Of a stretch of 64,000 bases of DNA, positions 19 to 30,709 are shown piece after piece. This DNA comes from Nitrosopumilus sp. (GTDB lineage Archaea; Thermoproteota; Nitrososphaeria; Nitrososphaerales; Nitrosopumilaceae): assembly GCA_965249555.1 (NCBI GenBank), contig OZ252243.1, forward strand, positions 640,001 to 704,000, in the 5' to 3' direction. The first letter of the stretch is position 1. Every line of letters begins with the position of its first letter. The notes under the pieces are model-generated. The model was not told the DNA's origin, did no database searches, and saw only the letters and a list, made by a program, of their open reading frames with translations. The translations under genes and the position numbers were made by a program.

Positions 19-3000
19 GCTTCAAGAGAGTTGTAACTTTATCGTTACAGAAATTTGGTGGTCATGTGCCATATCAGAACGCCCTGATGTTATGCTTCAA
101 TGGGGCTGTAACTTTATCGTTACAGAAATTTGAGAATAAATCCAGTAATAAATGGATTACCAGTTCCAGCGCTTCAATGGGGCTGTAACTTTATCGTTAC
201 AGAAATTTTATGCGCTATGTGTTATGTTTGTCATACTCATGTAGCTTCAATGGGGCTGTAACTTTATCGTTACAGAAATTTCACAAATTGTAATACAATA
301 AGGGTACTATAACGGTTGCTTCAATGGGGCTGTAACTTTATCGTTACAGAAATTTTATGCGCTATGTGTTATGTTTGTCATACTCATGTAGCTTCAATGG
401 GGCTGTAACTTTATCGTTACAGAAATCACTCGGATGTTGTTTTCCCTGCACGTCTGATATACAGAGCTTCAATGGGGCTGTAACTTTACCGTTACAGAAA
501 TTGGCTCCAGCTTTGGTAATCTCAAGAATGATCTCGCCACGCTTCAATGGGGCTGTAACTTTATCGTTACAGAAATCACTCGGATGTTGTTTTCCCTGCA
601 CGTCTGATATACAGAGCTTCAATGGGGCTGTAACTTTACCGTTACAGAAATTGGCTCCAGCTTTGGTAATCTCAAGAATGATCTCGCCACGCTTCAATGG
701 GGCTGTAACTTTATCGTTACAGAAATGGCTTAATCAAAGATGTTATCTCAATGTCCGTATATTATCAACTTCAATGGGGCTGTAACTTTATCGTTACAGA
801 AATATAAAGAGGAAGCTGAGGGTTTCACAATCGATTTTCTAGCTTCAATGGGGCTGTAACTTTATCGTTACAGAAATTTTGTGAGGTTTGAAGTTTGAAG
901 TGGACAGTTTCCCAAGCTTCAATGGGGCTGTAACTTTATCGTTACAGAAATTCTGTTATCTTTGATTTTTAGTTTGATTTTATCTTCTTCAGCTTCAATG
1001 GGGCTGTAACTTTATCGTTACAGAAATCTAAAAATGTTTTGACTGCTGTCGGCGTGTAAGCCGGGCTTCAATGGGGCTGTAACTTTATCGTTACAGAAAT
1101 TTCCATCAGCTCCAGTTTCATCTTTACCAAATGCTTTGCTTCAATGGGGCTGTAACTTTATCGTTACAGAAATTTCTCCAGCCGGATATTGATAACCGTG
1201 AGCCTTCATGCTTCAATGGGGCTGTAACTTTATCGTTACAGAAATTTCGAAAAGCCAATTAGTAAACTTGGTACGACTCACCTGCTTCAATGGGGCTGTA
1301 ACTTTATCGTTACAGAAATTGTAAGTTACAGGATAACGCAATAAATCTATGCTCAGCTTCAATGGGGCTGTAACTTTATCGTTACAGAAATACTTTATCA
1401 CGATTACGGTTTAGATAGTCAAGGACAAGCTTCAATGGGGCTGTAACTTTATCGTTACAGAAATAAATGAATCAGCGAATAGTTCGACATCAAATTTCTT
1501 GCTTCAATGGGGCTGTAACTTTATCGTTACAGAAATCTGATGATAACATCTTTGCTGAATTTCATGTTCATGCTGCTTCAATGGGGCTGTAACTTTATCG
1601 TTACAGAAATCATGAGTGATTTGTTGTCCTCGAGTTGGTCCTCCATGTGCTTCAATGGGGCTGTAACTTTATCGTTACAGAAATGATACAACTTGAAAAT
1701 ATTGCAAAAGCAGAAGCACGCTTCAATGGGGCTGTAACTTTATCGTTACAGAAATTGGAAAATCAAGCTTCAAAATTAATGGCTACAACATCGCTTCAAT
1801 GGGGCTGTAACTTTATCGTTACAGAAATTTCCCTATGGACCTTCCTTTGCAGGTCCTTGTATTTCTCAGCTTCAATGGGGCTGTAACTTTATCGTTACAG
1901 AAATGCGGCAGCCAATCCCGACGGCTTGGCTTCCATCATAGACGCTTCAATGGGGCTGTAACTTTATCGTTACAGAAATGTAGTAATTGCATTCATCTGC
2001 ATTTGACTTGCACCACCGCTTCAATGGGGCTGTAACTTTATCGTTACAGAAATTTCGGCTTTGAAAATTGCTAATGCTTTAGATTTTTTGCTTCAATGGG
2101 GCTGTAACTTTATCGTTACAGAAATCTTGATGTCTCAAACAGCAAGAGTTCAAACTAGATTAGCTTCAATGGGGCTGTAACTTTATCGTTACAGAAATAT
2201 AGAACGGTTATCAGGTCAAAGAGCGTTAAAAGTAGCTTCAATGGGGCTGTAACTTTATCGTTACAGAAATTTGGATAGCGATTGGATAGCTATGACAAAG
2301 CAACTGGAAGCTTCAATGGGGCTGTAACTTTATCGTTACAGAAATCTGCATCAGTAAGAAATAGTAGATTGTCTACAGCCGTTGCTTCAATGGGGCTGTA
2401 ACTTTATCGTTACAGAAATGATGGATCAGGCTATACCAGGGGTATTGGGTCAGGGATGCTTCAATGGGGCTGTAACTTTATCGTTACAGAAATTTAGTGT
2501 TACTGAAAATTCTAGGTTAGGATGGTCCAAAGCTTCAATGGGGCTGTAACTTTATCGTTACAGAAATTTTGAAAAAGAAACTTTGAAAGAAGACAAAGAG
2601 AGAGCGCTTCAATGGGGCTGTAACTTTATCGTTACAGAAATCTTAGGTTGTAGAACTCAAAGAACAGCTGACATTATCGCTTCAATGGGGCTGTAACTTT
2701 ATCGTTACAGAAATGTCAGAATTAGTTTGAGTAAAAACACTACCTTTTCTCGCTTCAATGGGGCTGTAACTTTATCGTTACAGAAATTTAGCATACAAGA
2801 GATAGCCTCCGATACCAACCGCTCCTGGCTTCAATGGGGCTGTAACTTTATCGTTACAGAAATTTCTCAAAATGAAAAAAATTGTTAACAATGTCCAAGC
2901 TTCAATGGGGCTGTAACTTTATCGTTACAGAAATTTTGAGCCTTTCAATTACACTAGTTAAAATTTTAGATGCTTCAATGGGGCTGTAACTTTATCGTTA

Positions 3001-3538
3001 CAGAAATCACCAAGTCGTGCAATACCTCCACCAGGTCCTCCTGGCTTCAATGGGGCTGTAACTTTATCGTTACAGAAATTTGATTGTTTCGACAAGATTC
3101 CAACTGACACCTAGATCCTGGAGGCTTCAATGGGGCTGTAACTTTATCGTTACAGAAATTAGGATATCAGCGCCACGACTTAGGCCCGCTGCTAAATTTG
3201 TGCTTCAATGGGGCTGTAACTTTATCGTTACAGAAATATGGTATACAAGCAACATATCCGTACGAAGTGTGTATTGTCTACGCTTCAATGGGGCTGTAAC
3301 TTTATCGTTACAGAAATATCGAATTTAGAAAACTTGTCGCAATTAGAACATTTATGCTTCAATGGGGCTGTAACTTTATCGTTACAGAAATTTTTATAGA
3401 GCTATAAAGCCTAATATAAACCCTAAATGCTTCAATGGGGCTGTAACTTTATCGTTACAGAAATTTCTGTTTGTTCTTTTTTAGCCTTGTCAAGACTACT
3501 TTGCTTCAATGGGGCTGTAACTTTATCGTTACAGAAAT
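19..3538 (-). CRISPR. CRISPR array, 48 repeats / 47 spacers (about 35-44 bp), type I-G (I-U)-like repeat ATTTCTGTAACGATAAAGTTACAGCCCCATTGAAGC
   Basis: 36-bp repeat with a 7-bp hairpin CTGTAAC/GTTACAG and 3' end ATTGAAGC on the minus strand. The degenerate terminal repeat at 19-54 (4 mismatches) marks the trailer end, so the leader is on the cas2 side. Single-base variant repeats at 466, 616 and 768. Confidence 0.99.
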
Positions 3539-3691
3539 GGGGTCATTTTCTCTAAAACCGTTATCATGTTTTTGTTTCTAGTTGTTTTTCAATTGTTATC
3601 TGACGATTCAAGCAAATCATAGACATTGCTGTGGTATGATATTTTTTTCATATATATTATATCTGCGAGAGTATTATCATACTTACCTTGA
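3539..3691 (-). promoter_or_regulatory. CRISPR leader
   Basis: AT-rich non-coding stretch between cas2 and the first intact repeat, opposite the degenerate end; TATA-like run near 3650-3660. Confidence 0.7.
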
Positions 3692-3801
3692 CTTGTAACC
3701 CATCGCATTTTCTTTGCCCTATATCACTTGCGCAAAGCTCTTGATAGGGCTTCTTGTCAGGCATCTTGTAACCCATCGCATTTTCTTTGCCCTATATCAC
3801 T
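3692..3801. repeat. 37-bp direct repeat (3692-3728, 3765-3801) flanking a 36-bp unique insert
   Basis: CTTGTAACCCATCGCATTTTCTTTGCCCTATATCACT present twice, exact; the second copy overlaps the cas2 stop codon. Confidence 0.95.
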
Positions 3802-4079
3802 ACGGATCTCTCCCTTTCCGTATCCATTTGTGCCCCTATTACTGATATTCTTTCTTTACTTTTATTTAAGGAGCCAAGATTAATTATCAAAATTTTATCT
3901 TCAACCATATTCATTATATCCTCTAACTCTTCTTTCATAATTATTATTTCCTTGTAGTTAAGATCACACATAAACACAGAATATTGTACAGGTTCCCCAT
4001 ACCCCTTCATCTTTTTATGTATCTGTATCAATCGTTGCGGATCATGTATATCGTAACATACAAAGTATCTATTGCGCAA
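3792..4079 (-). CDS. cas2: CRISPR-associated endonuclease Cas2
   Basis: YFVCYDI..D..R and VQYSVF motifs; likely TTG start at 4079 just after the cas1 stop (ORF track start 4139 overlaps cas1). Confidence 0.96.
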   Translation of the reverse strand: MRNRYFVCYDIHDPQRLIQIHKKMKGYGEPVQYSVFMCDLNYKEIIIMKEELEDIMNMVEDKILIINLGSLNKSKERISVIGAQMDTERERSVVI

Positions 4080-4083
4080 ACCT

Positions 4084-5769
4084 TCATCTTGTCCTAAATG
4101 CAGGATATGTTGGAATCTCTCCAAGAATATGTCTGGCAAGTAATCTTGTTTGAGTTTCCATTATGCGTTTATAGCTGGCAGCATAACCCAAAAGTGGATG
4201 AATAACAACAGAATCCATACGTCTCTCATATGCAGTTATCACTGTAGAACGCCCTCTATTGGTAAGGTTTGTTCCAAAGTCGGTCTTTATCAAATCTGAT
4301 TCATTGATTTCACCGTTATTGATAAGCGTAATACATGTAGAATCTGCTACAATTGGTCTGAATTCCTCGATCATATCAAGTGCAAGTGCGGGTTTCCCAT
4401 ATTTTGGCATATGAAGAAATCCCAGATAGGGATCAAGACCTACTCTACTAACTGTAATCATTGCATTCCTTGTCAACATTGCATATAGAAATGACATAAT
4501 TGCATTAACTGGATCCTTTGGAGGTCTTCTGTTTCTTCCATTAAAATCAAAAGCCGTTGATTCAGATTTTATCATGCCATTAAATTCTGAAAAATATATG
4601 CGTGCAGCCATTCCCTCTATTCCAAGAAGAGTATCATATTGTTTTACAGTACATGCACGTTGTGCAAGTATGTTCATCTTGTGTATCTTATCTATAGGGG
4701 GAGATTTGTGGTTTCTACGTAGCATTGTCATGCAATTTTTTATTTTTCCAAACACCATCTGACGAGCTATCCCAATGGATGCATTTTTAACATCATATTT
4801 TTTATGCTGTTTAATTCGCAGTTCTATATTTTTATGTGAAAGTCCTGTAGTAATACCCGTAAACCATCCTCCATATGTCATGTAACAGATAGGAATATTT
4901 CGCTTGCTTAACTCCCTTATTGCTTGTGTTGTGATCTGGATATTTCCAAATAGTGTAATTTCTGAAATGTCTATCAATCTAATCTTCTTTATTATTGTAT
5001 CTTTTAATTTTACATGAATGCAATCATTTGATTTTGTAATATGTGCTCCCTGTTCCTGTATGTATACTGGTATGGTGTCATTTCTTATTGGATACATTCT
5101 GCGTATCTGGTCCTTGTTTATTTGATGAGTCTCATCTGATAACAAATTGACTTCATCAGGTAGACATATTCCCACAAGGGAACATCTTGGACATTTCGGA
5201 CTGTCAACCAACGGAGCAGGTATTGTATATGACTTTGCCATTTCTTTCATCTCTTTGATCATCTGTAATGTTTTTTTTACTGTTTGATCATCTAGATTAA
5301 TTTCTATTCTTTGCTTTGATGCAATATAATAAACAAAACCCTTTGTACATGTGTATCCATTTGCACGTAGTAAAAGTCCTTGAGCACATACTTGTATGAT
5401 GTGATCATCATATGTTCTGTTAGGAGTATTGGGAGTGCTGCCACGTTTGTATTCTATTGGTGTTGCAACGTTTCCATCTAATTCAAGTAGATCTGTTTTA
5501 GATATCAATCCAAGCTCTGTATCAGACAAAGTAACTGATCTGGCATGAATCTTTTCTACTGTGATATTATCTTTATCGGTCTTTTGTTCAAGCATTTTTC
5601 CTCCTGACGGTTTGTCTACATTTCTATGCTGATATTTGCCGTCTATCACATCTTTGTTGGATTCAAATTCCCCTTGAACCCATTCCATATATGCAAGTCG
5701 TTTACAATATACGAATTGTGTTAGCATTCTTACTGGTATAAGATTTGAATTAACACTTGATGTACTCAT
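4084..5769 (-). CDS. cas1: Cas4-Cas1 fusion protein (typical of type I-G/I-U)
   Basis: N-terminal Cas4 (YCKR, KTD..IEYK, CPRCSLVGIC Fe-S cysteines); C-terminal Cas1 (GIEG, RRPPKDPVNA, GFLH, LALDMIEEFR). Confidence 0.97.
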   Translation of the reverse strand: MSTSSVNSNLIPVRMLTQFVYCKRLAYMEWVQGEFESNKDVIDGKYQHRNVDKPSGGKMLEQKTDKDNITVEKIHARSVTLSDTELGLISKTDLLELDGNVATPIEYKRGSTPNTPNRTYDDHIIQVCAQGLLLRANGYTCTKGFVYYIASKQRIEINLDDQTVKKTLQMIKEMKEMAKSYTIPAPLVDSPKCPRCSLVGICLPDEVNLLSDETHQINKDQIRRMYPIRNDTIPVYIQEQGAHITKSNDCIHVKLKDTIIKKIRLIDISEITLFGNIQITTQAIRELSKRNIPICYMTYGGWFTGITTGLSHKNIELRIKQHKKYDVKNASIGIARQMVFGKIKNCMTMLRRNHKSPPIDKIHKMNILAQRACTVKQYDTLLGIEGMAARIYFSEFNGMIKSESTAFDFNGRNRRPPKDPVNAIMSFLYAMLTRNAMITVSRVGLDPYLGFLHMPKYGKPALALDMIEEFRPIVADSTCITLINNGEINESDLIKTDFGTNLTNRGRSTVITAYERRMDSVVIHPLLGYAASYKRIMETQTRLLARHILGEIPTYPAFRTR

Positions 5770-6112: not shown

Positions 6113-6637
6113 TTATACAAACTTTCTAGCCTTCATTCTCTTGATTTTTTCTTGCAACAAAATACATCCTTGGATGAGAGTTTCAGGTCTAGGCGGACAG
6201 CCAGGAACATAGACATCGACTGGAATCACTCCGTCAATTCCCGGAAGTACATTGTATGAATCAAAATACAACCCCCCAGTAATTGCACAAGCTCCCATAG
6301 CAATTACATACTTTGGTTCTGGCATTTGATCATAAACTAGTCTGAGACGTGGTGCCATTTTTCTTGTAATAGTTCCTTGAACAACAATTAGATCACATTG
6401 TCTAAGTGATCCAAATGCCTCAATGATACCAAATCTTTCAACATCATATCTAGGACTTGATGCTGCACCAAATTCAACACTGCAGCAAGCCGTTTCAATG
6501 TGGACAGGCCAGAGTGACCAAATTCTACCCCAATTGATGGCATAGCCCAATGGTTTGCCGATTGCCCGCTCTAAAATGTCCCCTAGCTTTCCTACAAAGA
6601 CATTTGCATTTTCTGGCGTTACTAAATCATTAAGCAA
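6113..6637 (-). CDS. nuoB: NADH-quinone oxidoreductase subunit B
   Basis: TACCSVE, GACAITGG and VPGCPPRPE Fe-S motifs. Confidence 0.97.
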   Translation of the reverse strand: MLNDLVTPENANVFVGKLGDILERAIGKPLGYAINWGRIWSLWPVHIETACCSVEFGAASSPRYDVERFGIIEAFGSLRQCDLIVVQGTITRKMAPRLRLVYDQMPEPKYVIAMGACAITGGLYFDSYNVLPGIDGVIPVDVYVPGCPPRPETLIQGCILLQEKIKRMKARKFV

Positions 6638-6676
6638 TCTTATCCCCTATCTCATAAATGCAATTTATATAAAAAA

Positions 6677-7051
6677 CTACCATATTCTTCGCCTCCCAGA
6701 CTGATACAATGCAAATGCCATTGCGCCAAACATTATAGCTAAAAATCCCATCATTGGCAAAGTTGCACTCTTTGGAAGTTCCAAAAGGGCACTTCCCCAG
6801 GCATACAGGAAGATTGCCATGACATCAAAGACTACAAACATCAGAATGTAGGGATAATACTGCATCATAAAGTGAGTCCGGCCTTCGCCTGACGGGACTT
6901 GACCGCATTCCATTGGTAAAAATTTCACAGGATTGTTTATTTTTCGAGGAGAAATCATCCTAGAAATAACTAAAGCCGGAGCCATAGCTGCTACGGCAAA
7001 TCCAAACATCAATACAACAATACTGTAATTGCCCGCTAATTCTCCGACCAA
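6677..7051 (-). CDS. nuoA: NADH-quinone oxidoreductase subunit A
   Basis: Three hydrophobic helices, PMECG loop, FVVFDV; directly upstream of nuoB. Confidence 0.95.
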   Translation of the reverse strand: MVGELAGNYSIVVLMFGFAVAAMAPALVISRMISPRKINNPVKFLPMECGQVPSGEGRTHFMMQYYPYILMFVVFDVMAIFLYAWGSALLELPKSATLPMMGFLAIMFGAMAFALYQSGRRRIW

Positions 7052-14819: not shown

Positions 14820-16307
14820 CTAATTCAACCATTCCCCACCTCTAATTCCCCATACATTATAATTTGCTTGAGCCAAATCTCCTGCTTCATTTAGTGTTGT
14901 TGGACCTATTGCTCCTATGTAATTCTCTGCAATTCCTGGGAGTGCAGCTTTAATCACACTAACATCACTGCTTTGGGTTTCAAGCATTGCCAGTCCAATT
15001 AACCACACGGCATCATATGAAGAATGCACAAATACGTTAGGAACCATGCCAAGTACTTCAGTTATATGAGATTGCACTTTGTTATATTTTGGGTTTTCTG
15101 TAATTGCAAACGCAACTGATGTAAATTGAACATTAGTTGAAAATTCTAGTGCTATTGGATCATCAATCAGACTGTGGTCTTTTGTGGTAGCACCTGGTCC
15201 GAACCATCTTACATCATGTAATATGTCATATTCGGATGCTGATTGAGTAAACTGTAGAATTTCCGCAAATCCCAAAAACATGACACCAACTTTGTCTGCT
15301 CCATATTCATCAACATGTTCTTGTACTTGTTGAGCTAATAGGGAAACTGATACAGAAAATTCTGGAGTCTCCGGATTGTAGCGAATAGGTTCGCCTACTA
15401 TTCCCCCTCTTTTGATAAATGAATCAGTTGTAGACTTACTTAGACCATCACCCCATGTGTCTCCCCTATATACTGGAACCAATACATCGATTCCTTCATG
15501 TTTCATTAGCTTTGCAAGTGCAGGTCCTTGCTTAGAGTCATCTGGAATTAGACGAAATACACTATCATTTGTAATAGCTAATGCAGGTGCAGTAGAACAA
15601 CAGCTAACTAACAACATGTTGTTAGAGTCCGAATAACCTTTCATGTGGCTAACATTGGAACTAGTTTCAGGTCCTATTACAATTCCAATTCCTTTGGCAT
15701 AAAGTGATGTTAGTTTTTCTAGTGCAGTTACTGGATTAGTTGCAGAATCTTCTGTAATCATTTTGAGATGCCATGGGGCATCAATGTCTTGCAAATGTTT
15801 GTTAAACTCGGATACCCCAAACTTTGAGCCCTCATTGCTTCCTAGTCCATGAGTTGACCAATCACCTGTTAGTGGAACGATTGCTCCGATGGTTACTTCT
15901 CCGGACAGTCCTGCTGTTTCTTCCATCATTGGATCTTTCATCATATCATCCTCCATCATTGGATCTTTCATCATATCATCCTCCATCATTGGATCTTTCA
16001 TCATATCATCCTCCATCATTGGATCTTTCATCATATCATCCTCCATCATTGGATCTTTCATCATATCATCCTCCATCATTGGATCTTTCATCATATCATC
16101 CTCCATCATTGGATCTTTCATCATATCATCCTCCATCATTGGATCTTTCATCATATCATCCTCCATCATTGGATCTTTCATCATATCATCCTCCATCATT
16201 GTTTCATCTACATCCATAACTTCTGTATCCGTACCTAATACTCCATAAGCAACACCGATAATAATTAGAATAACTACAACACCAATTCCTATTTGTTTAG
16301 TACTCAT
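14820..16307 (-). CDS. membrane-anchored ABC substrate-binding protein (LivJ-like) with Met/Asp-rich repeat linker
   Basis: N-terminal TM helix, IGAIVPLTG, EDS, IGP..S, YDAV motifs; a possible 1-bp deletion near 14830 removes about 14 C-terminal residues (GKYAMIDDSIMLN in another frame). Confidence 0.88.
   Translation of the reverse strand: MSTKQIGIGVVVILIIIGVAYGVLGTDTEVMDVDETMMEDDMMKDPMMEDDMMKDPMMEDDMMKDPMMEDDMMKDPMMEDDMMKDPMMEDDMMKDPMMEDDMMKDPMMEDDMMKDPMMEDDMMKDPMMEETAGLSGEVTIGAIVPLTGDWSTHGLGSNEGSKFGVSEFNKHLQDIDAPWHLKMITEDSATNPVTALEKLTSLYAKGIGIVIGPETSSNVSHMKGYSDSNNMLLVSCCSTAPALAITNDSVFRLIPDDSKQGPALAKLMKHEGIDVLVPVYRGDTWGDGLSKSTTDSFIKRGGIVGEPIRYNPETPEFSVSVSLLAQQVQEHVDEYGADKVGVMFLGFAEILQFTQSASEYDILHDVRWFGPGATTKDHSLIDDPIALEFSTNVQFTSVAFAITENPKYNKVQSHITEVLGMVPNVFVHSSYDAVWLIGLAMLETQSSDVSVIKAALPGIAENYIGAIGPTTLNEAGDLAQANYNVWGIRGGEWLN
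15922..16200 (-). repeat. 30-bp tandem repeat, 9 perfect copies plus a partial, encoding MMEDDMMKDP
   Basis: GGATCTTTCATCATATCATCCTCCATCATT repeated exactly. Confidence 0.99.
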
Positions 16308-20467: not shown

Positions 20468-20535
20468 AGATTTTAACGTGCATAACGAATGCACGTTAAG
20501 ATTTTAACGTGCATAACGAATGCACGTTAAGATTT
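20468..20535. repeat. tandem duplication (31-bp unit) of an 11-5-11 palindrome
   Basis: TTAACGTGCAT-AACGA-ATGCACGTTAA occurs twice head-to-tail. Confidence 0.95.
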
Positions 20536-20550
20536 AAAAATAATGAATAT

Positions 20551-21669
20551 ATGAATAATTCATTGGAATTAAAACAGAATCAACAAGAATCTACGAAATC
20601 GACAACTCAACAAATTCCTAAAGGTAAAAAGATCATAAGATATTCATTGAATCAATCTCTAAAGATCGCAAAATCAATAGAAGACAACAATGCTGGAAAT
20701 CCATATAATCGAATAGATCTATGCAAATCATTAGAATTAAGTCCAAATGGATCCGTCTTTCGAACATTACTTGTTGCATCTAATAGGTATGGTTTAACAA
20801 AAGGTAACTATAATGCAGATAAAATTGAATTAACTGAATTAGGAAGTTCCATAGTTGCACCAATTGATGATGAGAATCAACTACAAGCAATTAAACAAGT
20901 TCTGAAAACCAACATATTGGGAGAAATAATTGATCATTATAACAATAAACAAATTCCAAGAGTTGAATTACTCAAAAATACATTAAAAAAAGAATTCCAT
21001 GTTGAACATGATGATGTAGATTTATGCTATAATGTTTTTATGTCTAATGCAAAAGAATATAACTTAATTCAGAAAATTAAAGGAAAACAATATCTTAAAT
21101 TTGATGTTTCGATTAAACTACAAAATCCAGAAGAAAAATTTGAATCATTAGAGCAATTAGAAAAAGAAGAAACAATAACAAATGATAATATTGCAATTAT
21201 ACCAACAACAGTAACAACTACATCTAAAGTATTTCTTTCTCACAGTAAGAATATGACAATATTGGATCAGATAAAAAAAGTCCTAACATTTGGAAATTTT
21301 GAATTTGAAATTGCAGTAGAAGAAGAAACAACAGCAATTCCAATACCTGAAAAAATATTTGGTTTAATGCGTAAATGTAACTGTGCCATCATAAATGTCA
21401 GTGCAGATGAACAGGAAAAAAGAGAAGATGGAAGTTATGGTATAAATCAGAATGTACTAATTGAAATTGGAGCTGCATTTTTGCAATACAATAAAAAAGT
21501 TATTTTGTTAGTAGATAAAAGAGTAAAGTTACCTAGTAATCTACAAGGATTGTATAAATCAGAATATGAGGGTGAAGAATTAAGCTGGGATACGGGTATG
21601 AAACTTCAAGAAGCGTTATCAAGTTTTCGTCAATCTGGATATGTGGAATCAAAAAGTTCTAGTCAATAA
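20551..21669 (+). CDS. protein with N-terminal winged-helix-like region and C-terminal TIR-like nucleotide-binding domain
   Basis: KVFLSHS, CNCAIINVSAD, NQNVLIEIGAA (candidate catalytic Glu) and LPSNLQGL; start chosen after the palindromic repeats. Confidence 0.8.
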   Translation: MNNSLELKQNQQESTKSTTQQIPKGKKIIRYSLNQSLKIAKSIEDNNAGNPYNRIDLCKSLELSPNGSVFRTLLVASNRYGLTKGNYNADKIELTELGSSIVAPIDDENQLQAIKQVLKTNILGEIIDHYNNKQIPRVELLKNTLKKEFHVEHDDVDLCYNVFMSNAKEYNLIQKIKGKQYLKFDVSIKLQNPEEKFESLEQLEKEETITNDNIAIIPTTVTTTSKVFLSHSKNMTILDQIKKVLTFGNFEFEIAVEEETTAIPIPEKIFGLMRKCNCAIINVSADEQEKREDGSYGINQNVLIEIGAAFLQYNKKVILLVDKRVKLPSNLQGLYKSEYEGEELSWDTGMKLQEALSSFRQSGYVESKSSSQ

Positions 21670-21851: not shown

Positions 21852-22120
21852 GTGTATGGTACAATGACGTATAAGAACGTAAAAACAGTACCGTTTGCTT
21901 CACTGATTGCTGCAATGATCCTGCCATTCTCTGGCATGAATTTTGCAGAGGCAGAAATAGATGAAATAAAATACAGTAAATCAGAGATTGACAAATCATT
22001 TAAAAATTCAGAAGGTTATGTCAGTTTTGAGAAACAAGATAATCAAATGAAAGTAGATGTGAGTGAAATGATCAAAAATGATCTAGATATGAAAGATATC
22101 AGAATCATGGAATTTAGGTA
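21852..22120 (+). pseudogene. secreted protein 5' fragment (signal peptide MTYKNVKTVPFASLIAAMILPFSGMNFAEA)
   Basis: Signal-peptide-like start; truncated where an inverted copy of the 29906 gene begins. Confidence 0.6.
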
Positions 22121-22121
22121 T

Positions 22122-22357
22122 TTGCGTTTTGCCATATCCCAAGTGAGCTTGTCCCATGTGTAAACAAAATATGCAGTAAATTGTGAATGTTTTTTTGGTG
22201 CTTTGATTTTGTTTTATTGGTATAACCGTACAATTTGTGGGCTGCAGACCTTACATATGTTTTGTAAGATAATAAATTGCCATAAATTTGTTTATTATTT
22301 TGAGGCATACCGCAAGTCATTATCAATTGTATTATAACAGAGTGCCGTATATAGTAT
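22122..22357 (-). pseudogene. partial duplicate of the promoter and 5' end of the 29906-30709 gene
   Basis: Near-identical reverse complement of about 29860-30092. Confidence 0.85.
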
Positions 22358-23422
22358 AGGCAGTCTAGCCAAGGTAAACCTCCTGCAAGATTTTTACTTG
22401 GTTGGACTTTTGCCTTTGGAATTTAAAATAAATTACTTGCTAGTTTTTTTAATGACAGGATCTCTTCTTCCTGTCTGATTTTTTTATCAATTACACAAAG
22501 CATTGCATCATTCCAAACATGTTGTGAGAAAAAATTATGTTTGGTATTGGCTAATTCAATCTCATCATCCACTACCGTATCTTCAAGAAATTTAGTTACA
22601 ATTACGTCTTCATCTACAGATTATGACGACTTGAAATCATTATTGCATTATGATCCTGCCAATACAAATATTGTCACGGGTAACGGCCCTGATGAGTTAA
22701 TGTGGAATCTACTACAAACTGCAGAAATTATCTTAGATGGAAGTGAAAGCGATGACAAAGATAATGGGAATCTAAAATTCTTTTGTCGTATTATATAGCC
22801 TGGAATGTTTAGCTATATTCAAAGTTCTGGAATGGAAGAGATGTCAATGATTGTGTATTTGGTAGGCCAAATATTTTCTCCCCAGAGAAGATCTATATTA
22901 TTCCTCGATAATGTTACAGGCATCTTTGACACTTGTTATTCGCATATTTACTAAGTTTCTTCATCTGTTGATTCAACATGATGATAATTCTTATTTGTAG
23001 GAATAAGCATTATGGATTTTATCCTTTCTAATGTATAACATGTTGATTTGTATATTCCATTATCCATTTGAAACCATACTGAATTAATTTAGAGAAATCG
23101 TAATTTAACATCGGATGCAATAGGGGCCAGAAATCTAAAGAAAAATATCCCTACATATCATTTGTCATAAAAGTTCCTAAAACAACCATCATGTTGCTGT
23201 TTTGTCTTCAATATTGCAAAAAATATTCAAACATCACTTTACAATGATCCAAATAACTACCATCTCACAGCTTTGGTTGTATAGCATTCCAACTGCATTA
23301 ATTTCAGATTTCTATGATTTCCTTTACGAACAATCCCTTTGGAATGACAATTATGAAAACATTACATATCACATTATTATAAATTAACAATATTTAATAA
23401 ATAAGTGATATGTAGTATATTC

Positions 23423-24292
23423 ATGGTAAGTATAGTAAAAGAGGGAGGATTTTACTATATGAAACATCACACTAGAGACAAAGAAAAGAGAAGATATCTA
23501 GGCAAAACCATACCAAAGGATATCGAGCAACAAAAAAAGACGTTTCTCAAGGAATTTTACTGTAAAGTGTGGGATGGTAAAACACGAAAAATTATCGCAA
23601 GTTACAAAAAAGACACAGTGGGAATTCCACGATCAATAAAACTAAAAAATTTTGAGAGTTTTGCAATATCATTTACATACAACACGCAAAGAATAGAGGG
23701 TTCAAGTCTCACTCGTGCAGACACAATAAACTTGCTAGTACATGGTGTCACTTCTGCAAAAAAATCAAAGATAGATGCCATTGAGACTCTGAAACACTAT
23801 GAGCTATTTATCAGACTAGTAACATCAAAGAAGCTTGAAAGAATCAGAAAAAAAGATGTCCTAAAATGGCACAGAGAAATATTTGATCAAACAAAAATTG
23901 GAGAAGCTGGGGATATCAGACATCACAGGGTAGGAGTAATAACTAGTAACGAGGTAGAATTTACGCCAGTTCCACAGATACCAAAAAAACTAAAAGAATT
24001 TTTTGATTGGCTAAACAGATATGATAAAAAGGCAAATCCTGTAGAATTTGCAGCCCTCACTCATTACAAGCTTGTCTCAATTCACCCCTTTGCTGATGGA
24101 AATGGCAGGATCTCAAGACTAGTCATGAATTATGTTTTATTCAAATATGATTGTCCACTTGTGCAGATTGAAAGCAGGGACAAGAGGTCATATTTCAAGT
24201 CATTAGAAAAATCCCAGACAAACAATAATGAGATGTATTTTCTAAAGTGGTTTATGAAATATTATATCAAATCCAACAAGAGATATCTATAA
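23423..24292 (+). CDS. Fic-domain protein
   Basis: Canonical HPFADGNGRISR motif; NTQRIEGS motif. Confidence 0.93.
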   Translation: MVSIVKEGGFYYMKHHTRDKEKRRYLGKTIPKDIEQQKKTFLKEFYCKVWDGKTRKIIASYKKDTVGIPRSIKLKNFESFAISFTYNTQRIEGSSLTRADTINLLVHGVTSAKKSKIDAIETLKHYELFIRLVTSKKLERIRKKDVLKWHREIFDQTKIGEAGDIRHHRVGVITSNEVEFTPVPQIPKKLKEFFDWLNRYDKKANPVEFAALTHYKLVSIHPFADGNGRISRLVMNYVLFKYDCPLVQIESRDKRSYFKSLEKSQTNNNEMYFLKWFMKYYIKSNKRYL

Positions 24293-25025: not shown

Positions 25026-25135
25026 AGATAATCAGGTGCACAAAATGCCGGTTCTGTGAAGTTATCGTGACCTGAAATATGGATCTTCTAAGGATTCTGC
25101 TAACTAATTTTTATAACTGGTTATTCAATCAAAAA

Positions 25136-25243
25136 CATGAATCTCTGCTTACAGAGCCGCCCCATTGAAGAATTAACTATGTGTGTTACAAAATACAAAA
25201 ATTAGAAATTTCTGAAAGTTTCTACTTTCAGCCCCATTACCGA
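25136..25243 (+). CRISPR. degenerate mini-CRISPR (repeat - 36-nt spacer - repeat), candidate crRNA-like RNA
   Basis: First unit ends GCCCCATTGAAGA; second unit ATTTCTGAAAGTTTCTACTTTCAGCCCCATTACCGA aligns without gaps to the array repeat and keeps a 7-bp hairpin; TTTTATAA upstream at about 25109. Confidence 0.75.
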
Positions 25244-25424
25244 ACATACATACTTAATGAATCTATCATAACAAGGATTGAAACTTTGTAGTGAGTTGTA
25301 GAGAATCCAATTTGGAAATCCACTAAAACAAGGATATAACATCTCACTACAAACAAATTATTTTCTTGTGCCTGTCAACAAAATCAAGAAATATTTAATA
25401 AAGTAGTTCAATGTTAATTTGAGT

Positions 25425-25538
25425 ATGACAAAAGAAAACACACCAGATTGGAATGATGAAGACCTTGCCAAATGCACAAAATATGATGATGATGTTAAAG
25501 CAGGTACAATGACCTATAGAAGCATAGAGATAAATTAA
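25425..25538 (+). CDS. small acidic protein (37 aa), putative antitoxin
   Basis: MTKENTPDWNDEDLAKCTKYDDDVKAGTMTYRSIEIN; TATA-like TTTAATAAA about 28 bp upstream; precedes a RelE-like gene. Confidence 0.5.
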   Translation: MTKENTPDWNDEDLAKCTKYDDDVKAGTMTYRSIEIN

Positions 25539-25558
25539 ATCAATTTCTCTCTTTTTTT

Positions 25559-25825
25559 ATGAAAATTTCTAAAATTAAATACAGTAAACAGTTTGATAAA
25601 TTTTTAGAGAATCTGAATGATAAAACTCGTGCAGAACAAATTACTACTGCACTTGAAAACTATGCAAAAGATCCAAATGAATTACCTAGACCAAAAGATT
25701 GCAAACATTATGCAAATAGAGAAAAAGTTGCAATACCTGATGCAAGTGTTGTCGTTTTTTATGATAATTTTGGGAGTTATTGGATTATGATTGATGGTTC
25801 TGAATTTACTCAACGAGTAACTTAG
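25559..25825 (+). CDS. RelE/ParE-like toxin candidate
   Basis: 88 aa; IKYSKQFDKFLENL start, helix pair, DP, then beta strands VVVFYD - a RelE/ParE-like pattern. Confidence 0.55.
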   Translation: MKISKIKYSKQFDKFLENLNDKTRAEQITTALENYAKDPNELPRPKDCKHYANREKVAIPDASVVVFYDNFGSYWIMIDGSEFTQRVT

Positions 25826-25838
25826 TTACTTGTATTGA

Positions 25839-26009
25839 TTAATCCTTAGTTACAACAATTCCTTTACCACGAATGACAAACTTTATCCTTTCAGGATCTT
25901 TGAGAAGTTCTATTATTGGTTTTGGTACTCTGCATATTTTACTGTTAGCTCCATCAAATGTAAGTTTTACAGAAAACTCTCTCTGATCTTTTTTCCATCT
26001 TGGCAACAT
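25839..26009 (-). CDS. small AbrB-like DNA-binding protein (56 aa)
   Basis: MLPRWKKDQREFSVKLTFDGANSKICRVPKPIIELLKDPERIKFVIRGKGIVVTKD; divergent from the transposase, with TACGTACG twice in between. Confidence 0.6.
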   Translation of the reverse strand: MLPRWKKDQREFSVKLTFDGANSKICRVPKPIIELLKDPERIKFVIRGKGIVVTKD

Positions 26010-26090
26010 ACAAAATTATCTTTACATGTATAAAAATCATACGTACGCTAATAAGTTATGTATAAATATACGTACGTGTAATATAATTAC

Positions 26091-27215
26091 ATGAACCCAA
26101 GAACTCAAAGAGCCCAACAGATGATGAAAAATCCAGACTGTGCAGTACAATTCACTCCTGACAAATTCAGTGTAAGATCACAAAGCATTCCACAAATTCA
26201 TTATATCATATCAAAGACTGACAACGGATTAATCTGTGACTGTCCAGATCACACCAAAAGAAAATCAGACTGCAAACATATCAAGATTGTATTGGAGCTA
26301 ATTAAGAAAAATCAAGGTGATGTCCAAGAGTTTAGAATGATGGATAGATCACTACTCAAATTATGCAAATACTGTGATTCAGGCAGATTGATCAAAAAAG
26401 GAATCAAAAAAAACAAGAAAGGAAATACCCAGCAATACAAATGCCAAGATTGTAAAAAGAGATTCACCTTGAATCTTGGCTTTGAGAAGATGAGATATGA
26501 TTCAACTCTAATCACTAGAGCCTTGCAGTTGTACTTTGCAGGAATGAGTGTAAGAGATATTGCAGATGCTTTTGAGCAGGAGGACATCAAAGTATCTTAT
26601 AGGGCAGTCTACGGATGAGTTGAAAAATACTCCAAGATGACCAGTAATTATCTCAAGGGTATAGTACCAAGAGTATCTGAAACTTGGAGAACAGATGAAA
26701 TCTTTATGAAGATAAAAGGCAATATGAAACTACAGTATTCAATGCTTGACCACTCCACTAGATTTATGATCACTCAATATGTGGTAAACACAAAAGGCAC
26801 TGAAAACGTCACACCGATGTTTAGGGAAGCAATGATGATTGCAGACAAAATCCCAACTACTCTGATTTCTGATGGTGCAGCCAACTTTCACTAGGCATGG
26901 AAGGATAATTACAAGGCACGAAATTTCTTGTGGAAAGATACTAACCATATCAGACACATACACCTCAAGGGTGACAAAAATAATAACAGAATGGAAAGAT
27001 TGAATGGTACTATAAGAGACAGAGAAGTAGCATACAGGGGGATAAAGAAGATGAACAGTCCATTATTTGCAGGATTCCAAACATTCTATAATTTCTCAAA
27101 AAAGCATGGTGGCATAGGCAAGAAGACTTCAGCAGAATTAGCTGGTATTCTAGTAGATGGAAATAACAAGTGGAAAACTCTGATCCAAAACGCCTCACTT
27201 AGTCAATACCAATAA
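26091..27215 (+). pseudogene. IS6-family DDE transposase with SWIM and zinc-ribbon domains, two in-frame stops
   Basis: CDCPDH....CKH, CKYC/CQDC, WRTDE, LISDG, NNRMER; the three ORFs share one frame, with TGA at 26616 and TAG at 26892. Confidence 0.92.
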
Positions 27216-27326
27216 TCATCATTTTAAGAATTTTAGAACTTGTAAATTTTATGTAGATTTTTCAATCCTTAGAAGATCGTGTTTTGTGTCTGGGTCACGA
27301 TAACTTCACAGAACCACAAATTCAAT

Positions 27327-28768
27327 GTATGTATCAACCTTCACGCACAAATCAATATCATTACACAAAAAGATCTAAGATCAACTAAATCATCATACAA
27401 AACATGTCAGGTTGTGGTCATGAGAAAATCATCATACAGCTACAAGCAGAGATAAAACAACTGCAAGAAAAGTTAAAACAACTACCGCTAATCATAGAAA
27501 ATCTCATAGAATCAAACAAGGAACTGCAAAAAAAGCTGTCATATTATGAGAATGCACACTCTCCGCCATCAAAGAATTCCCTTGAATGGAGAAAGCAAAA
27601 AAGACAACACAGACAGCCAGGCAAATCAAGACGTGGTGGAATAGCAGGACACGTTGGCAAGACACAGAAATTCAGACCAACTAGCACCAAACACCACAGA
27701 TCAGATGCATGTCCCAAATGCGGTAGTGAAAATATTCATCAAACCAAAACCTGCAAAAGGATAATGGTTGAGATTCCTCCACCAACACCCTACGGTATAA
27801 CTGAGCATGTTTTGAATCAATACATCTGCATGGACTGTTCTGATAATTTTCAAACCACGGGAAACCTTCCACTACATGGATGTTTTGATGGTTCAGTGAT
27901 ACGTGAGGTCGTCTCACTGTTCTCAAAGAGATTGACATACGATGCTATCAGAACCACACTCTATGAAAGATATGGATTAGAAATCAGCAATACAACCGTA
28001 CAATCCATTCTTCGCAACGGTAGTGTGATGTTAGAGTCATTTTACAATACAATCCACAGCGAAATCGTGACTGAAAATATTCTCGGAATCGATGAGACAG
28101 GATTTTCAATTGATGGAAATACTGGATGGATGTGGGTTGCAAGAAGCAAGACTAGTGCACAGTATGCCTTGGAGTACAGCAGAGGTGCCAATGTTCTAAA
28201 AAAGTACTGGAAGAAATTCAAAGGAACCCTAGTGTCTGACGGATATGCTCCGTACAGGACAGTATTTTGTGATAACACAAAGCAGAGATGCACCGCACAC
28301 CTGCAGCGCGATGCCAAATATCTGGCAATAAAATCACAGGACAAAAAGGCAAGGATTCTATACGAGAAACTCTCAGATATGCTAGGTCATGCCAGGGTTT
28401 GGAGTGTAGGTAATCGTCATACAAAACGGCGGGAAACGTACAGGGATGATTTACTAAAACAGCTAGACCGTATCATTGCACGATATTTGAAAGGTGATAT
28501 GGAGATGGTTCAGTTTGGCAAGAAGCTAAAGACTGCAAGGAACAGCATGTTTACGTTTGTCATGGATGGCGATGTCCCGTCAACTAACAATGATGCAGAG
28601 AATTCCATTCGAAAGTGCGTGATGCAGAGGAATGTTCGCGGGCAGATGAAGAGTGATCAGGGCATGAGGATGATCTCAGTCTTTCTCACATGCTTTGAGA
28701 CATGGAGAATAAGGGAATTGAACATGTTTTCTGAGATGGCAAAATACATCTAAGTGCTTGATACATAC
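27327..28768 (+). mobile_element. IS66-family element (single-ORF, ISBst12-like), intact
   Basis: 11-bp IRs GTATGTATCAA / TTGATACATAC and 8-bp target duplication AATTCAAT (27319-27326, 28769-28776). Confidence 0.95.
27404..28753 (+). CDS. IS66-family transposase
   Basis: Coiled coil, SPPS, CPKCG/CMDC, IDETG, LVSDGY, QRCTAHLQR and TNNDAENSIR motifs. Confidence 0.95.
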   Translation: MSGCGHEKIIIQLQAEIKQLQEKLKQLPLIIENLIESNKELQKKLSYYENAHSPPSKNSLEWRKQKRQHRQPGKSRRGGIAGHVGKTQKFRPTSTKHHRSDACPKCGSENIHQTKTCKRIMVEIPPPTPYGITEHVLNQYICMDCSDNFQTTGNLPLHGCFDGSVIREVVSLFSKRLTYDAIRTTLYERYGLEISNTTVQSILRNGSVMLESFYNTIHSEIVTENILGIDETGFSIDGNTGWMWVARSKTSAQYALEYSRGANVLKKYWKKFKGTLVSDGYAPYRTVFCDNTKQRCTAHLQRDAKYLAIKSQDKKARILYEKLSDMLGHARVWSVGNRHTKRRETYRDDLLKQLDRIIARYLKGDMEMVQFGKKLKTARNSMFTFVMDGDVPSTNNDAENSIRKCVMQRNVRGQMKSDQGMRMISVFLTCFETWRIRELNMFSEMAKYI

Positions 28769-29789: not shown

Positions 29790-29905
29790 ATGGTATAATC
29801 ATTGCAGCAATCAGTGGAGGCAAACGGTAACTGTCTTTGCGTTCTTGTACGTCATTGTATCGTATACAACACCTTGTTATAATACAGTTGATAATGATTT
29901 GCGGT

Positions 29906-30709
29906 ATGCCTCAAAATAATAAAGCAGTTTATGGCAATTTGCTATCTTACAAAGTATACGTAAGGCCTGCAGCCCACAAATTGTACGGTTATACCAACAA
30001 AACAAAATCAAAGCACCAAAAAAACATTCACAATTTACTGCATATCTTGTTTACACATGGGACAAGCTCCACTTGGGATATGGCAAAACGCAAATCACGC
30101 AAAATATCATTAATTCGAAAACAAGAAAAGATTTACAGGCGCCTACTGATTGGCAGAACCGATAGGGGCAGACATTCAGGGGGCATGTTGGATCTTGGCC
30201 TGGTAGTCAAAGAGCAAAGTGTACCACACACAAAGTACAGGCTGTCATTGTATGGCATACTATACTGCATTGATACGCAAGATCCCGCCAAAAAAGACAT
30301 TGACAGTATGGTAAAAAACTATGCATTTTTGATTCCCAAAATATTTGGCAACTGGGGCAGGGTAAAATCGGCATTAGGTGCTGATGCATACAGTTTGAGA
30401 ATACTATCTAAAGGCATTTATCTTAACAACACAAAGATGGCACGCAGCGACAACCCACTGTACGAGCTAATGTCATATGTCCACATAAAATATAAAAAAA
30501 ATTTCGAGTCTATTTTTGAGTATCAGCTAGCCGAGCAGATATCTTTTTGGTTTTACACATATTTACTGTATGAAAATTCTCAAAAACTAAAAAACATACT
30601 AGGCAAAGACGAGCAATTGCAAAATTGGTATATGGATTTTTTCAAGCAGGCAAAGGACCATTATACCAAGAGATTGCACACAATTAAAAATTCCAATATT
30701 TTAAAATAG
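29906..30709 (+). CDS. conserved hypothetical winged-helix protein
   Basis: STWDMAK and LDLGLV...YRLSLYG winged-helix pattern; ATG at 29906 preferred. Confidence 0.65.
   Translation: MPQNNKAVYGNLLSYKVYVRPAAHKLYGYTNKTKSKHQKNIHNLLHILFTHGTSSTWDMAKRKSRKISLIRKQEKIYRRLLIGRTDRGRHSGGMLDLGLVVKEQSVPHTKYRLSLYGILYCIDTQDPAKKDIDSMVKNYAFLIPKIFGNWGRVKSALGADAYSLRILSKGIYLNNTKMARSDNPLYELMSYVHIKYKKNFESIFEYQLAEQISFWFYTYLLYENSQKLKNILGKDEQLQNWYMDFFKQAKDHYTKRLHTIKNSNILK

Follow-up and report, generated by a model that had tools for sequence, protein, structure and literature searches.

Why should an insertion sequence of an archaeon carry, just inside one of its ends, what looks like a single unit of the CRISPR array of its host? 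The question is raised by a 64,000-nt stretch of a Nitrosopumilus sp. genome (hereafter the window; positions 640001-704000 of the complete 2.23-Mb genome, G000), in which two degenerate type I-G repeats and the 36-nt spacer between them lie within an IS6-like element, 21 kb away from the genuine array. A previous sequence-only reading of this locus had taken it for a transposon-borne mini-CRISPR that co-opts the host effector complex Cascade, either as a CRISPR-repressed module of the CreTA/CreR type or as a decoy. We found that the guide-like spacer matches a site flanked by a protospacer-adjacent motif (PAM) directly behind the second repeat, that guide and site have changed together in homologous elements, and that another unit, derived from a type I-B repeat, follows in tandem. 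This PAM-flanked, covarying target in cis gives the CRISPR-repressed option strong new support at the level of sequence. We therefore consider it rather likely that the feature is the first unit of a mobile, ~300-nt, CreA/CrePA-like repressor cassette that would guide Cascade to the cargo of its own transposon; the host CRISPR complex probably acts as a switch for transposon-carried genes.

The carrier, its first unit and the host array, which supplies the Cascade and Csb2 context, are composed as follows (window coordinates).

25050..27315 (+): IS6-like element, 2266 bp, carrier of the cassette, defined by its inverted repeats and transposase domain
25108..25116 (+): P1, a TATA-like T-rich box (TTTTTATAA), putative promoter of the guide transcript, located by eye ~48 nt upstream of the 5'-handle
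25136..25171 (+): psiR1 of the I-G unit, a degenerate repeat with a 5-bp hairpin (25143-25156), CCCC (25160-25163) and the 8-nt handle ATTGAAGA (25164-25171)
25172..25207 (+): guide 1 (psiS1), 36 nt, homologous in the elements of two further genomes, G219 and G328
25208..25238 (+): psiR2 of the I-G unit, ATTTCTG-AAAG-TTTCTA-CTTT-CAG-CCCCATT, a hairpin followed by CCCC and ATT
25243..25261 (-): cis target 1, a seed match to guide 1, with protospacer 25258->25243 and 5'-TTC PAM 25261-25259
19..3539 (-): host type I-G CRISPR array, 48 repeats

The element is bounded by perfect 23-nt inverted repeats (25050-25072, left; 27293-27315, right; 100% complementary), and its transposase matches the IS6-type domain DDE_Tnp_IS240 (PF13610) at 31.8 bits against a cut-off of 27. 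The I-G unit is enclosed by this pair, 86 nt in from the left one. The TATA-like box, the degenerate repeat, the 36-nt spacer and the second repeat, together with their location within an IS6 element, were all recovered where the sequence-only reading had placed them. The host system was likewise found to be of type I-G: Csb1, Csb2, Cas3g and Csx17/Cas8g are encoded just upstream of the window and Cas2 and a Cas4-Cas1 fusion at 3792-5769, which makes a full cas set, and in the host repeat (ATTTCTG-TAAC-GATAAA-GTTA-CAG-CCCCATT) a 7-bp hairpin is followed by CCCC and ATTGAAGC, the repeat ending in an 8-nt handle. In type I-G systems, cleavage by Csb2 occurs 4 nt 3' of a 7-bp hairpin and yields an 8-nt 5' handle; target sites have a TTN PAM, and the guide bases at every sixth position are flipped out and do not pair (PMC9638904).

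Judged by these properties, the second repeat keeps the signals expected of a Csb2 substrate. In psiR2 the final 5 nt of a true repeat are replaced, and 12 of 36 positions differ from the host repeat in a manual position-by-position count, which is why a repeat scan allowing up to 10 substitutions had missed it. The two differences in the stem are compensatory (T-A to A-T and C-G to G-C) and the loop still measures 6 nt, as had been pointed out from the sequence alone. The hairpin, 7 bp in the register of the host repeat (RNAfold draws 8), has a stability of -8.5 kcal/mol in G000, and across the three elements 0, 24 and 5 of 1000 shuffles, respectively, were as stable, the zero being that of G000. 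In all three it stops exactly 4 nt before the expected Csb2 cut, with differing stem sequences. The psiR2 hairpin thus appears to be under selection at the Csb2 cutting distance, and for this hairpin the proposed selection for Csb2-type processing is supported by both stability and covariation. The first repeat ends with GCCCCATTGAAGA (25159-25171), and GCCCCATTGAAG, in its CCCC/handle region, is invariant in all three elements. The combination is hardly a chance product: a pattern consisting of the handle, 34-46 nt of any sequence, ATTTCTG, 14 further nt and CAGCCCCATT matched 47 times in the window, 46 times in the array and once at 25160-25238, compared with 0.00 matches in 100 dinucleotide shuffles of the window, so that equally good pairs were not common in shuffled sequence.

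Next, the target of guide 1 was sought by scanning the 2.23-Mb genome for seed matches, with every sixth guide position ignored. Among 697 sites having at least seven matched seed positions, only three combined a TTN PAM with at least nine (scores 14, 9 and 9), and the site scoring 14, the genome's sole TTN-flanked site with more than nine matched seed positions, is cis target 1. It lies directly behind psiR2, 36 nt 3' of the guide, and matches guide positions 1-5, 7-11 and 13-16. No full-length match to the guide was found elsewhere in the genome (best 26/36, compared with 24-27 for shuffled guides), and the host CRISPR-cas locus (631000-646500) had four sites with at least seven seed positions, none with a TTN PAM, and no matched cas promoter. 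The degenerate guide pattern gave 0 matches in viral contigs, and the whole host array matched no phage record. As to the PAM of the host system, protospacers of spacer number 39 of the array occur with a TTC flank in four further genomes of the genus; these sites are homologous and therefore count as one observation. A faint guide resemblance 1 kb upstream of csb1 (L011 9917-9990) was lost on alignment, and upstream of the cas genes of G328 nothing similar was found. Two perfect host repeats enclosing a single 36-nt spacer form an orphan array ~0.9 kb from a C-terminal fragment of an IS6-type transposase (L012 6689-6798; genome 1884689-1884798, +); it had no cis target and no genomic target above chance, and a three-repeat I-B orphan array in G322 had no cis target either.

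Homologous cassettes were found to be few. In a family-wide DNA search of 401 genomes (tallies that include the unpublished G258 and G077, on neither of which any claim depends), 77 gave some match and the guide region was present in G219 and G328 only; BLAST of all 151 genomes of the genus again returned only three carriers, G000 included. Matches to the inverted repeats alone were listed in 19 genomes, which indicates that most relatives of the insertion sequence are without the cassette. A covariance model run over the 151 genomes found the three training copies only (115-135 bits), all other matches, at 45 bits or less, being ordinary arrays. A pattern scan of genome contigs yielded 115 stretches, of which five remained after filtering for at most three handle copies; a single one of these, L139 (the G219 element), is a homologue. 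The G328 cassette is missing from the 115 even though it conforms to the scan pattern. A metagenome pattern scan gave eight stretches, seven ordinary arrays and one chance match, with no new copy. A fourth copy, ~89% identical, was obtained as a contig in run X4. The G219 and G328 cassettes are ~75% identical and occupy the same spot just inside the IS6-like left end.

Comparison of these copies carries most of the argument. Guide 1 is homologous across the three elements and hence no unique acquired spacer. In G219 and G328 its cis match again has a TTC PAM, with 16 and 15 matched positions, respectively, and mismatches only at positions 6, 12 and 18, so that positions 1-5, 7-11 and 13-16(17) are matched in all three elements. 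Guide positions 8, 9, 14 and 16 vary between elements on guide and site alike and still pair, while positions 6, 12 and 18 drift freely. Covariation was quantified in alignment A4, in which 22 pairs were evaluated and 98.4% of 63 cells are paired; six pairs have changed on both sides, four in the guide-target helix and two in the psiR2 hairpin, the latter a helix of seven pairs that is 100% paired. These values were reached by 0 of 500 shuffles, and slid controls gave 30-44% paired cells and 0 compensatory pairs. The P1 columns are invariant across the three elements (T59-A66 of the first sequence in the alignment). In X4, the only change in handle and guide is at guide position 36, and position 6 is by chance matched. 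The four changes in psiR2 are all confined to the loop, and the PAM is TTT, still TTN. Conservation of the handle and the psiR2 hairpin in homologous elements, a check proposed together with the sequence-only reading, was thus found in all three.

Directly behind the PAM of cis target 1 begins a second unit:

25260..25284 (+): I-B psiR1, the 3' 25 nt of the type I-B repeat of the genus (24/25 match), ending in the handle ATTGAAAC
25285..25313 (+): guide 2 (psiS2), positions 1-11 and 13-15 complementary to 25353->25339
25314..25340 (+): I-B psiR2, a degenerate copy of the I-B repeat, likeness judged by eye
25339..25356 (-): cis target 2, with protospacer 25353->25339 and flanking triplet TTG 25356-25354

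Large arrays of the I-B repeat are found in many genomes of the genus, and in G374 its array adjoins I-B cas genes. Pairing of guide 2 with its cis match, ~60 nt downstream, starts at the first base after the I-B handle and breaks at position 12 in both G000 and G219, with 13 matched positions in each and the flanking triplets TTG and TTA, respectively; the two guide sequences are unrelated, yet have the same cis layout. In X4, the first 11 nt of guide 2 are unchanged and positions 14 and 15 have changed on both sides, as read from the difference table, in a part of the alignment made less sure by nearby insertions. In G328, the first I-B repeat is split by a small element of ~87 bp that has inverted repeats at its ends and is accompanied by an 8-bp duplication (L174). 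The 19-nt terminal sequence of this insert recurs in the window at 27327-27345, just outside the right inverted repeat, where it precedes an IS66-family transposase gene (27404-28753). No I-B arrays or I-B Cas7 were found in any of the three carriers, and I-B spacers of other genomes compared with G000 yielded no protospacers from which a PAM could be read. G374 holds both I-B and I-G arrays, and an IS6-type transposase gene (L177 6966-8090) lies ~1.5 kb upstream of its type I-B cas genes.

The CRISPR status of the carriers differs. G328 is of type I-G with a 132-repeat array, and its cassette lies ~1.2 Mb from the I-G locus; in G219 (99% complete, 20 contigs) no Csb2, I-G array or I-B Cas7 was found. 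Type I-G systems are thus present in two of three carriers, compared with I-G arrays in 10 of the 151 genomes of the genus, an association in the expected direction that is weak because related genomes are not independent, and from which G219 departs. The likeness to a type I-G repeat is clear, but to call the feature a mimic of the host repeat proved too narrow, since the stems of the homologues' repeats differ from those of their own hosts, no I-G genes or array were found in one carrier, and an I-B unit is present.

How such a cassette could act depends on what lies downstream, where a candidate promoter and two small open reading frames (ORFs) follow:

25393..25400 (+): P2, a TATA-like box located by eye ~32 nt upstream of cargo ORF 1
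25425..25538 (+): cargo ORF 1, 37 aa, without known family
25559..25825 (+): cargo ORF 2, 88 aa, possibly a RelE/ParE-like protein (weakly supported)

Both targets lie between P1 and P2, as predicted by eye, and boxes comparable to P2 were seen, likewise by eye, in G219 and G328. In the course of events that we propose, P1, just inside the left inverted repeat, would transcribe the degenerate I-G mini-CRISPR psiR1-guide-psiR2, and in a type I-G host Csb2 would cut 4 nt 3' of each hairpin, releasing a CRISPR RNA (crRNA)-like product of ~72 nt composed of the 8-nt handle AUUGAAGA, the 36-nt guide and, at the 3' end, a hairpin handle of 28 nt. With this RNA bound, Cascade would recognise 5'-TTC and pair with 14-16 seed positions of the opposite-strand site downstream; the match being too short to license Cas3, Cascade would remain on the site and repress, either by stopping read-through from P1 or by impeding P2, the promoter of the cargo. 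The I-B unit would be the same design acting in I-B hosts. Cargo expression would be low while Cascade is active, and on when Cascade is absent, lost or inhibited. More tentatively, the transposon may be a portable sensor of CRISPR status for two subtypes, whose tandem I-G and I-B guides park Cascade on its own element and silence interchangeable cargo; with the same reserve, such cargo might fire if the effector is missing, lost or blocked by an anti-CRISPR, as a mobile addiction or backup-defence switch.

A number of observations weigh against Cascade-guided repression. The psiR1 hairpin is weak in G000, where 145 of 1000 shuffles were as stable, weak in G328 and absent in G219. G219 keeps an intact unit although no Cascade genes were found there, and its cargo can accordingly not be lethal when derepressed. 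Unit 2 of G328 is without a cis match. The targets do not overlap P2; target 2 lies upstream of the box, by ~36 nt in G000 and ~20 nt in G219, and transcripts from P1 could end in a T-rich stretch (25357-25368) behind unit 2. Seed matches of at least 14 also occurred locally for 32 of 4000 random 36-mers, most of these being true repeats and 27 scoring at least 19. The covariation itself rests on few events, given three full copies and one contig variant from a single genus. Moreover, guide and target lie on one transcript, so that their complementarity also predicts an RNA stem. The complementarity in both units might on this account serve such a stem only, in processing, stability, attenuation or termination, and involve no binding of Cascade to DNA. 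The fold of 25136-25380 indeed forms exactly the guide-target stems (minimum free energy -50.2 kcal/mol, z -3.16, 1 of 200 shuffles as stable), a nested inner stem exists within unit 2 of G219, G-U pairs would form in RNA at three of the nine cells of positions 6, 12 and 18, and covariation cannot separate RNA pairing from guide-DNA pairing. We nevertheless regard a purely structural role as unlikely: it leaves unexplained why pairing starts at the first base after the handle in all units, why TTC/TTT is conserved beside position 1 and outside the stem, and why drift occurs exactly at positions 6, 12 and 18 while 8, 9, 14 and 16 covary, and the flanks are unmistakable derivatives of I-G and I-B repeats.

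The possibility of an anti-CRISPR RNA of the Racr/Cracr type, with repeats that soak up Csb2 or Cascade or a guide that redirects Cascade to host cas or safeguard promoters, draws on the resemblance of tandem degenerate repeats of two subtypes on a mobile element to 'multiplexed' crlRNA units (bioRxiv 10.1101/2024.10.29.618823), and on the presence among the carriers of a genome in which no CRISPR was found. The seed sites in the cas locus, none of them TTN-flanked, the lack of a match in the phage collection or of the degenerate guide pattern in viral contigs, and the joint conservation of the guide and its own cis site, neither of which a decoy needs, make this quite unlikely, and the decoy half of the sequence-only reading is not upheld. 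A decaying piece of CRISPR array, captured between inverted repeat and transposase and drifting since, would be in keeping with the broken transposase of G000, the degenerate psiR1, the interrupted unit 2 of G328 and the mere three carriers in the genus; at ~75% identity, however, handle, PAM, seed match and hairpin have been kept by two-sided changes, the copies share a homologous guide instead of each having a unique one, P1 is invariant, and all four psiR2 changes in X4 are in the loop, so that an inert relic seems very improbable. Least credible of all, and close to negligible, is a role of the guide in RNA-directed transposition or homing like that of CRISPR-associated transposons, to which the position of the guide at a transposon end and the sufficiency of partial complementarity for homing of those transposons (PMC10120712) could be held to point. 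The sole good target of the guide is inside the element itself, no match was found close to the insertion sites, and matches in the rest of the genome did not exceed chance. We also know of no link between IS6 transposases and Cascade. Repression by Cascade, guided by the element to its own cargo region, thus accounts best for the evidence considered here.

The nature of the cargo is less clear than that of the guide. The 37-aa and 88-aa ORFs, which had been described as a toxin-antitoxin-like operon, are present, and their toxin-antitoxin nature is weakly supported by the predictions made. The 88-aa protein, of which only four close relatives were found, matched the Pfam family ParE_toxin (E=0.049) and toxin families in PHROG (E=0.013 and 0.1), in each case below threshold; its AlphaFold model had a mean confidence (pLDDT) of 55, and its Foldseek matches were all non-significant, those to ParE chains having E>=1. 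A predicted complex of the 37-aa and 88-aa proteins scored 0.59, compared with 0.02 for the best of three controls, the runs agreeing in at least 90% of contacts with a partner pLDDT of at least 77. The mark used for such complexes was passed by 58 of 80 solved complexes, as against 2 of 110 mismatched pairs, and the scores of 0.60 or less among these comprised only 7 of the 80 solved complexes and both passing mismatches, so that binding is weakly supported. The corresponding pairs in the homologous elements measure 42 and 85 aa and 45 and 91 aa, with no detectable similarity between the pairs of different elements. A lone paralogue of the 37-aa ORF (L004 1534-1647, -; genome ~1990380-1990493), differing by reading in 3 of 37 residues, keeps the upstream region and is without an 88-aa partner; it could be an orphan antitoxin-like copy.

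The remainder of the element comprises two features:

25839..26009 (-): 56-aa ORF without known family, 75% identical to its G328 counterpart
26091..27215 (+): IS6-type transposase gene, broken into ORFs 26091-26618, 26637-26894 and 26928-27215, as defined by alignment to the G219 copy

For the 56-aa ORF no family and, in a PDB sequence search, no solved relative was found, and an 'AbrB-like' label given by eye was dropped upon this empty search. The three transposase ORFs correspond to residues 14-188, 197-281 and 294-384 of the intact 390-aa transposase of G219. No 8-bp target-site duplication was found, the flanks at 25042-25049 and 27316-27323 being different; members of the IS6 family can lose this duplication via cointegrate resolution. 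The genome holds a second copy of the element, 84% identical over the transposase part (L013 3263-6643; genome 229263-232643), with an intact 394-aa transposase and different cargo, which is encoded on the opposite strand and comprises a Dam-type methyltransferase together with a 304-aa ORF without known family, possibly a restriction-modification pair. Against the NCBIfam model transpos_IS6, the intact transposase paralogue scored 84.7 bits, below the model cut-off of 125.

Several observations concern the surroundings. The type I-G CRISPR-cas island, ~14 kb, lies between nuoA/nuoB and nuoC/nuoD, all four on the minus strand (window 6113-7051 and L011 7756-9539, genome 629756-631539), and looks as if it had been inserted into the NADH dehydrogenase operon. 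Within the array, a repeat-spacer pair is duplicated (window 391-726; 503-540 / 653-690) with a period of 150 and 100% identity; many genomes of the genus contain a sequence with a TTC flank that agrees with the duplicated spacer in 33-34 of 39 positions, the mismatches are spaced by three, as expected for a coding region, and no copy of this sequence was found in the G000 genome. The IS6-like element sits in an island of defence and mobile elements, which includes a CAP12/Pycsar-type TIR-domain protein (20509-21669) and a Fic/DOC protein (23405-24292), and a 233-nt inverted repeat (22120-22351 / 29863-30095; 92-100% complementary) brackets ~7.5 kb. Farther away, a perfect tandem repeat (15922-16201; 30 nt x 9.3) falls in the part with an extensin-like match of a gene for a 495-aa periplasmic-binding-type protein, and a single open reading frame of 9740 aa (34714-63936, -) consists mostly of a 492-nt tandem unit (48 copies, 68% matches) together with 264-nt units.

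If Cascade-guided repression of the cargo is true, mobile elements would use Cascade as a general, horizontally portable transcription factor, and CRISPR-repressed modules would not be tied to cas operons. The cassette would also be a natural design in which one promoter serves guides of two subtypes, and a compact ~300-nt system in which type I-G CRISPR interference could be tested in Nitrosopumilus-like archaea, where genetic tools are scarce.

Compared with CreTA and CrePA, known from type I-B haloarchaea and type I-F Acinetobacter, the cassette likewise has a degenerate two-repeat mini-CRISPR that keeps the handle-forming nucleotides. CreA has seed positions 1-5 and 7-11 plus TTC, with positions 6 and 12 mutable (PMC8501985), and the guide described here similarly shows seed-only pairing with a nearby PAM-flanked site and free positions 6 and 12. 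In the CrePA order, creA is followed by its target and the promoter of a protein toxin gene in Acinetobacter (bioRxiv 10.1101/2024.01.05.574328), and the order of guide, target, promoter and protein gene is the same here. Unlike CreTA and CrePA, the cassette resides outside the cas operon, 21 kb off and within an IS6-like transposon, occurs also in a genome without detectable Cascade, is of subtype I-G with two units for two subtypes in tandem, has a longer seed match of 14-16 positions and a target that does not overlap the predicted promoter box, and carries as cargo a variable two-gene pair of putative toxicity. Mini-CRISPR arrays borne by viruses and plasmids consist of one or two repeats that use the host Cas machinery, with spacers fully matching competing elements; the guide of the cassette is instead conserved, partly complementary and aimed in cis.

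In CreR and other cas-regulating mini-arrays, a mini-array RNA guides the effector to a partly complementary site, as it would here (Shmakov et al. 2023; Liu et al., preprint, 2023; PMC10120712; bioRxiv 10.1101/2023.03.10.532045), but those sit in CRISPR-cas loci and target cas promoters or cargo of the locus, whereas the guide of the cassette matches no cas promoter. The survey in PMC10120712 scanned only CRISPR-cas neighbourhoods; mini-arrays in 4% of 235 I-G loci appear in its table, and none of them is described. Cracr and Racr are likewise repeat-derived guide-like RNAs on mobile elements, some with several units per transcript, and differ in that they sequester Cas proteins or are aimed at host cas or creT promoters, and not at their own element; they are reported for subtypes V-A, I-F, I-E, I-C and I-B in phages and plasmids, and 'transpos', 'archaea' and 'I-G' each have 0 occurrences in the main text (bioRxiv 10.1101/2024.10.29.618823). 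In the literature outside supplements, no example borne by an insertion sequence, of type I-G, of dual subtype or from a thaumarchaeon was found, in agreement with the sequence-only reading, which knew of no such cassette in IS6 elements or Thaumarchaeota. By this comparison, the cassette would work like CreA/CrePA or CreR, yet it fails the residence in a cas locus that defines them. Known crRNA-like regulators such as CreA, CreR and scaRNA lie within or serve CRISPR-cas loci, and those of phages and plasmids aim at cas promoters; what appears new here is the same logic on a simple transposon, aimed at itself, in the little-studied type I-G and with a second, I-B unit.

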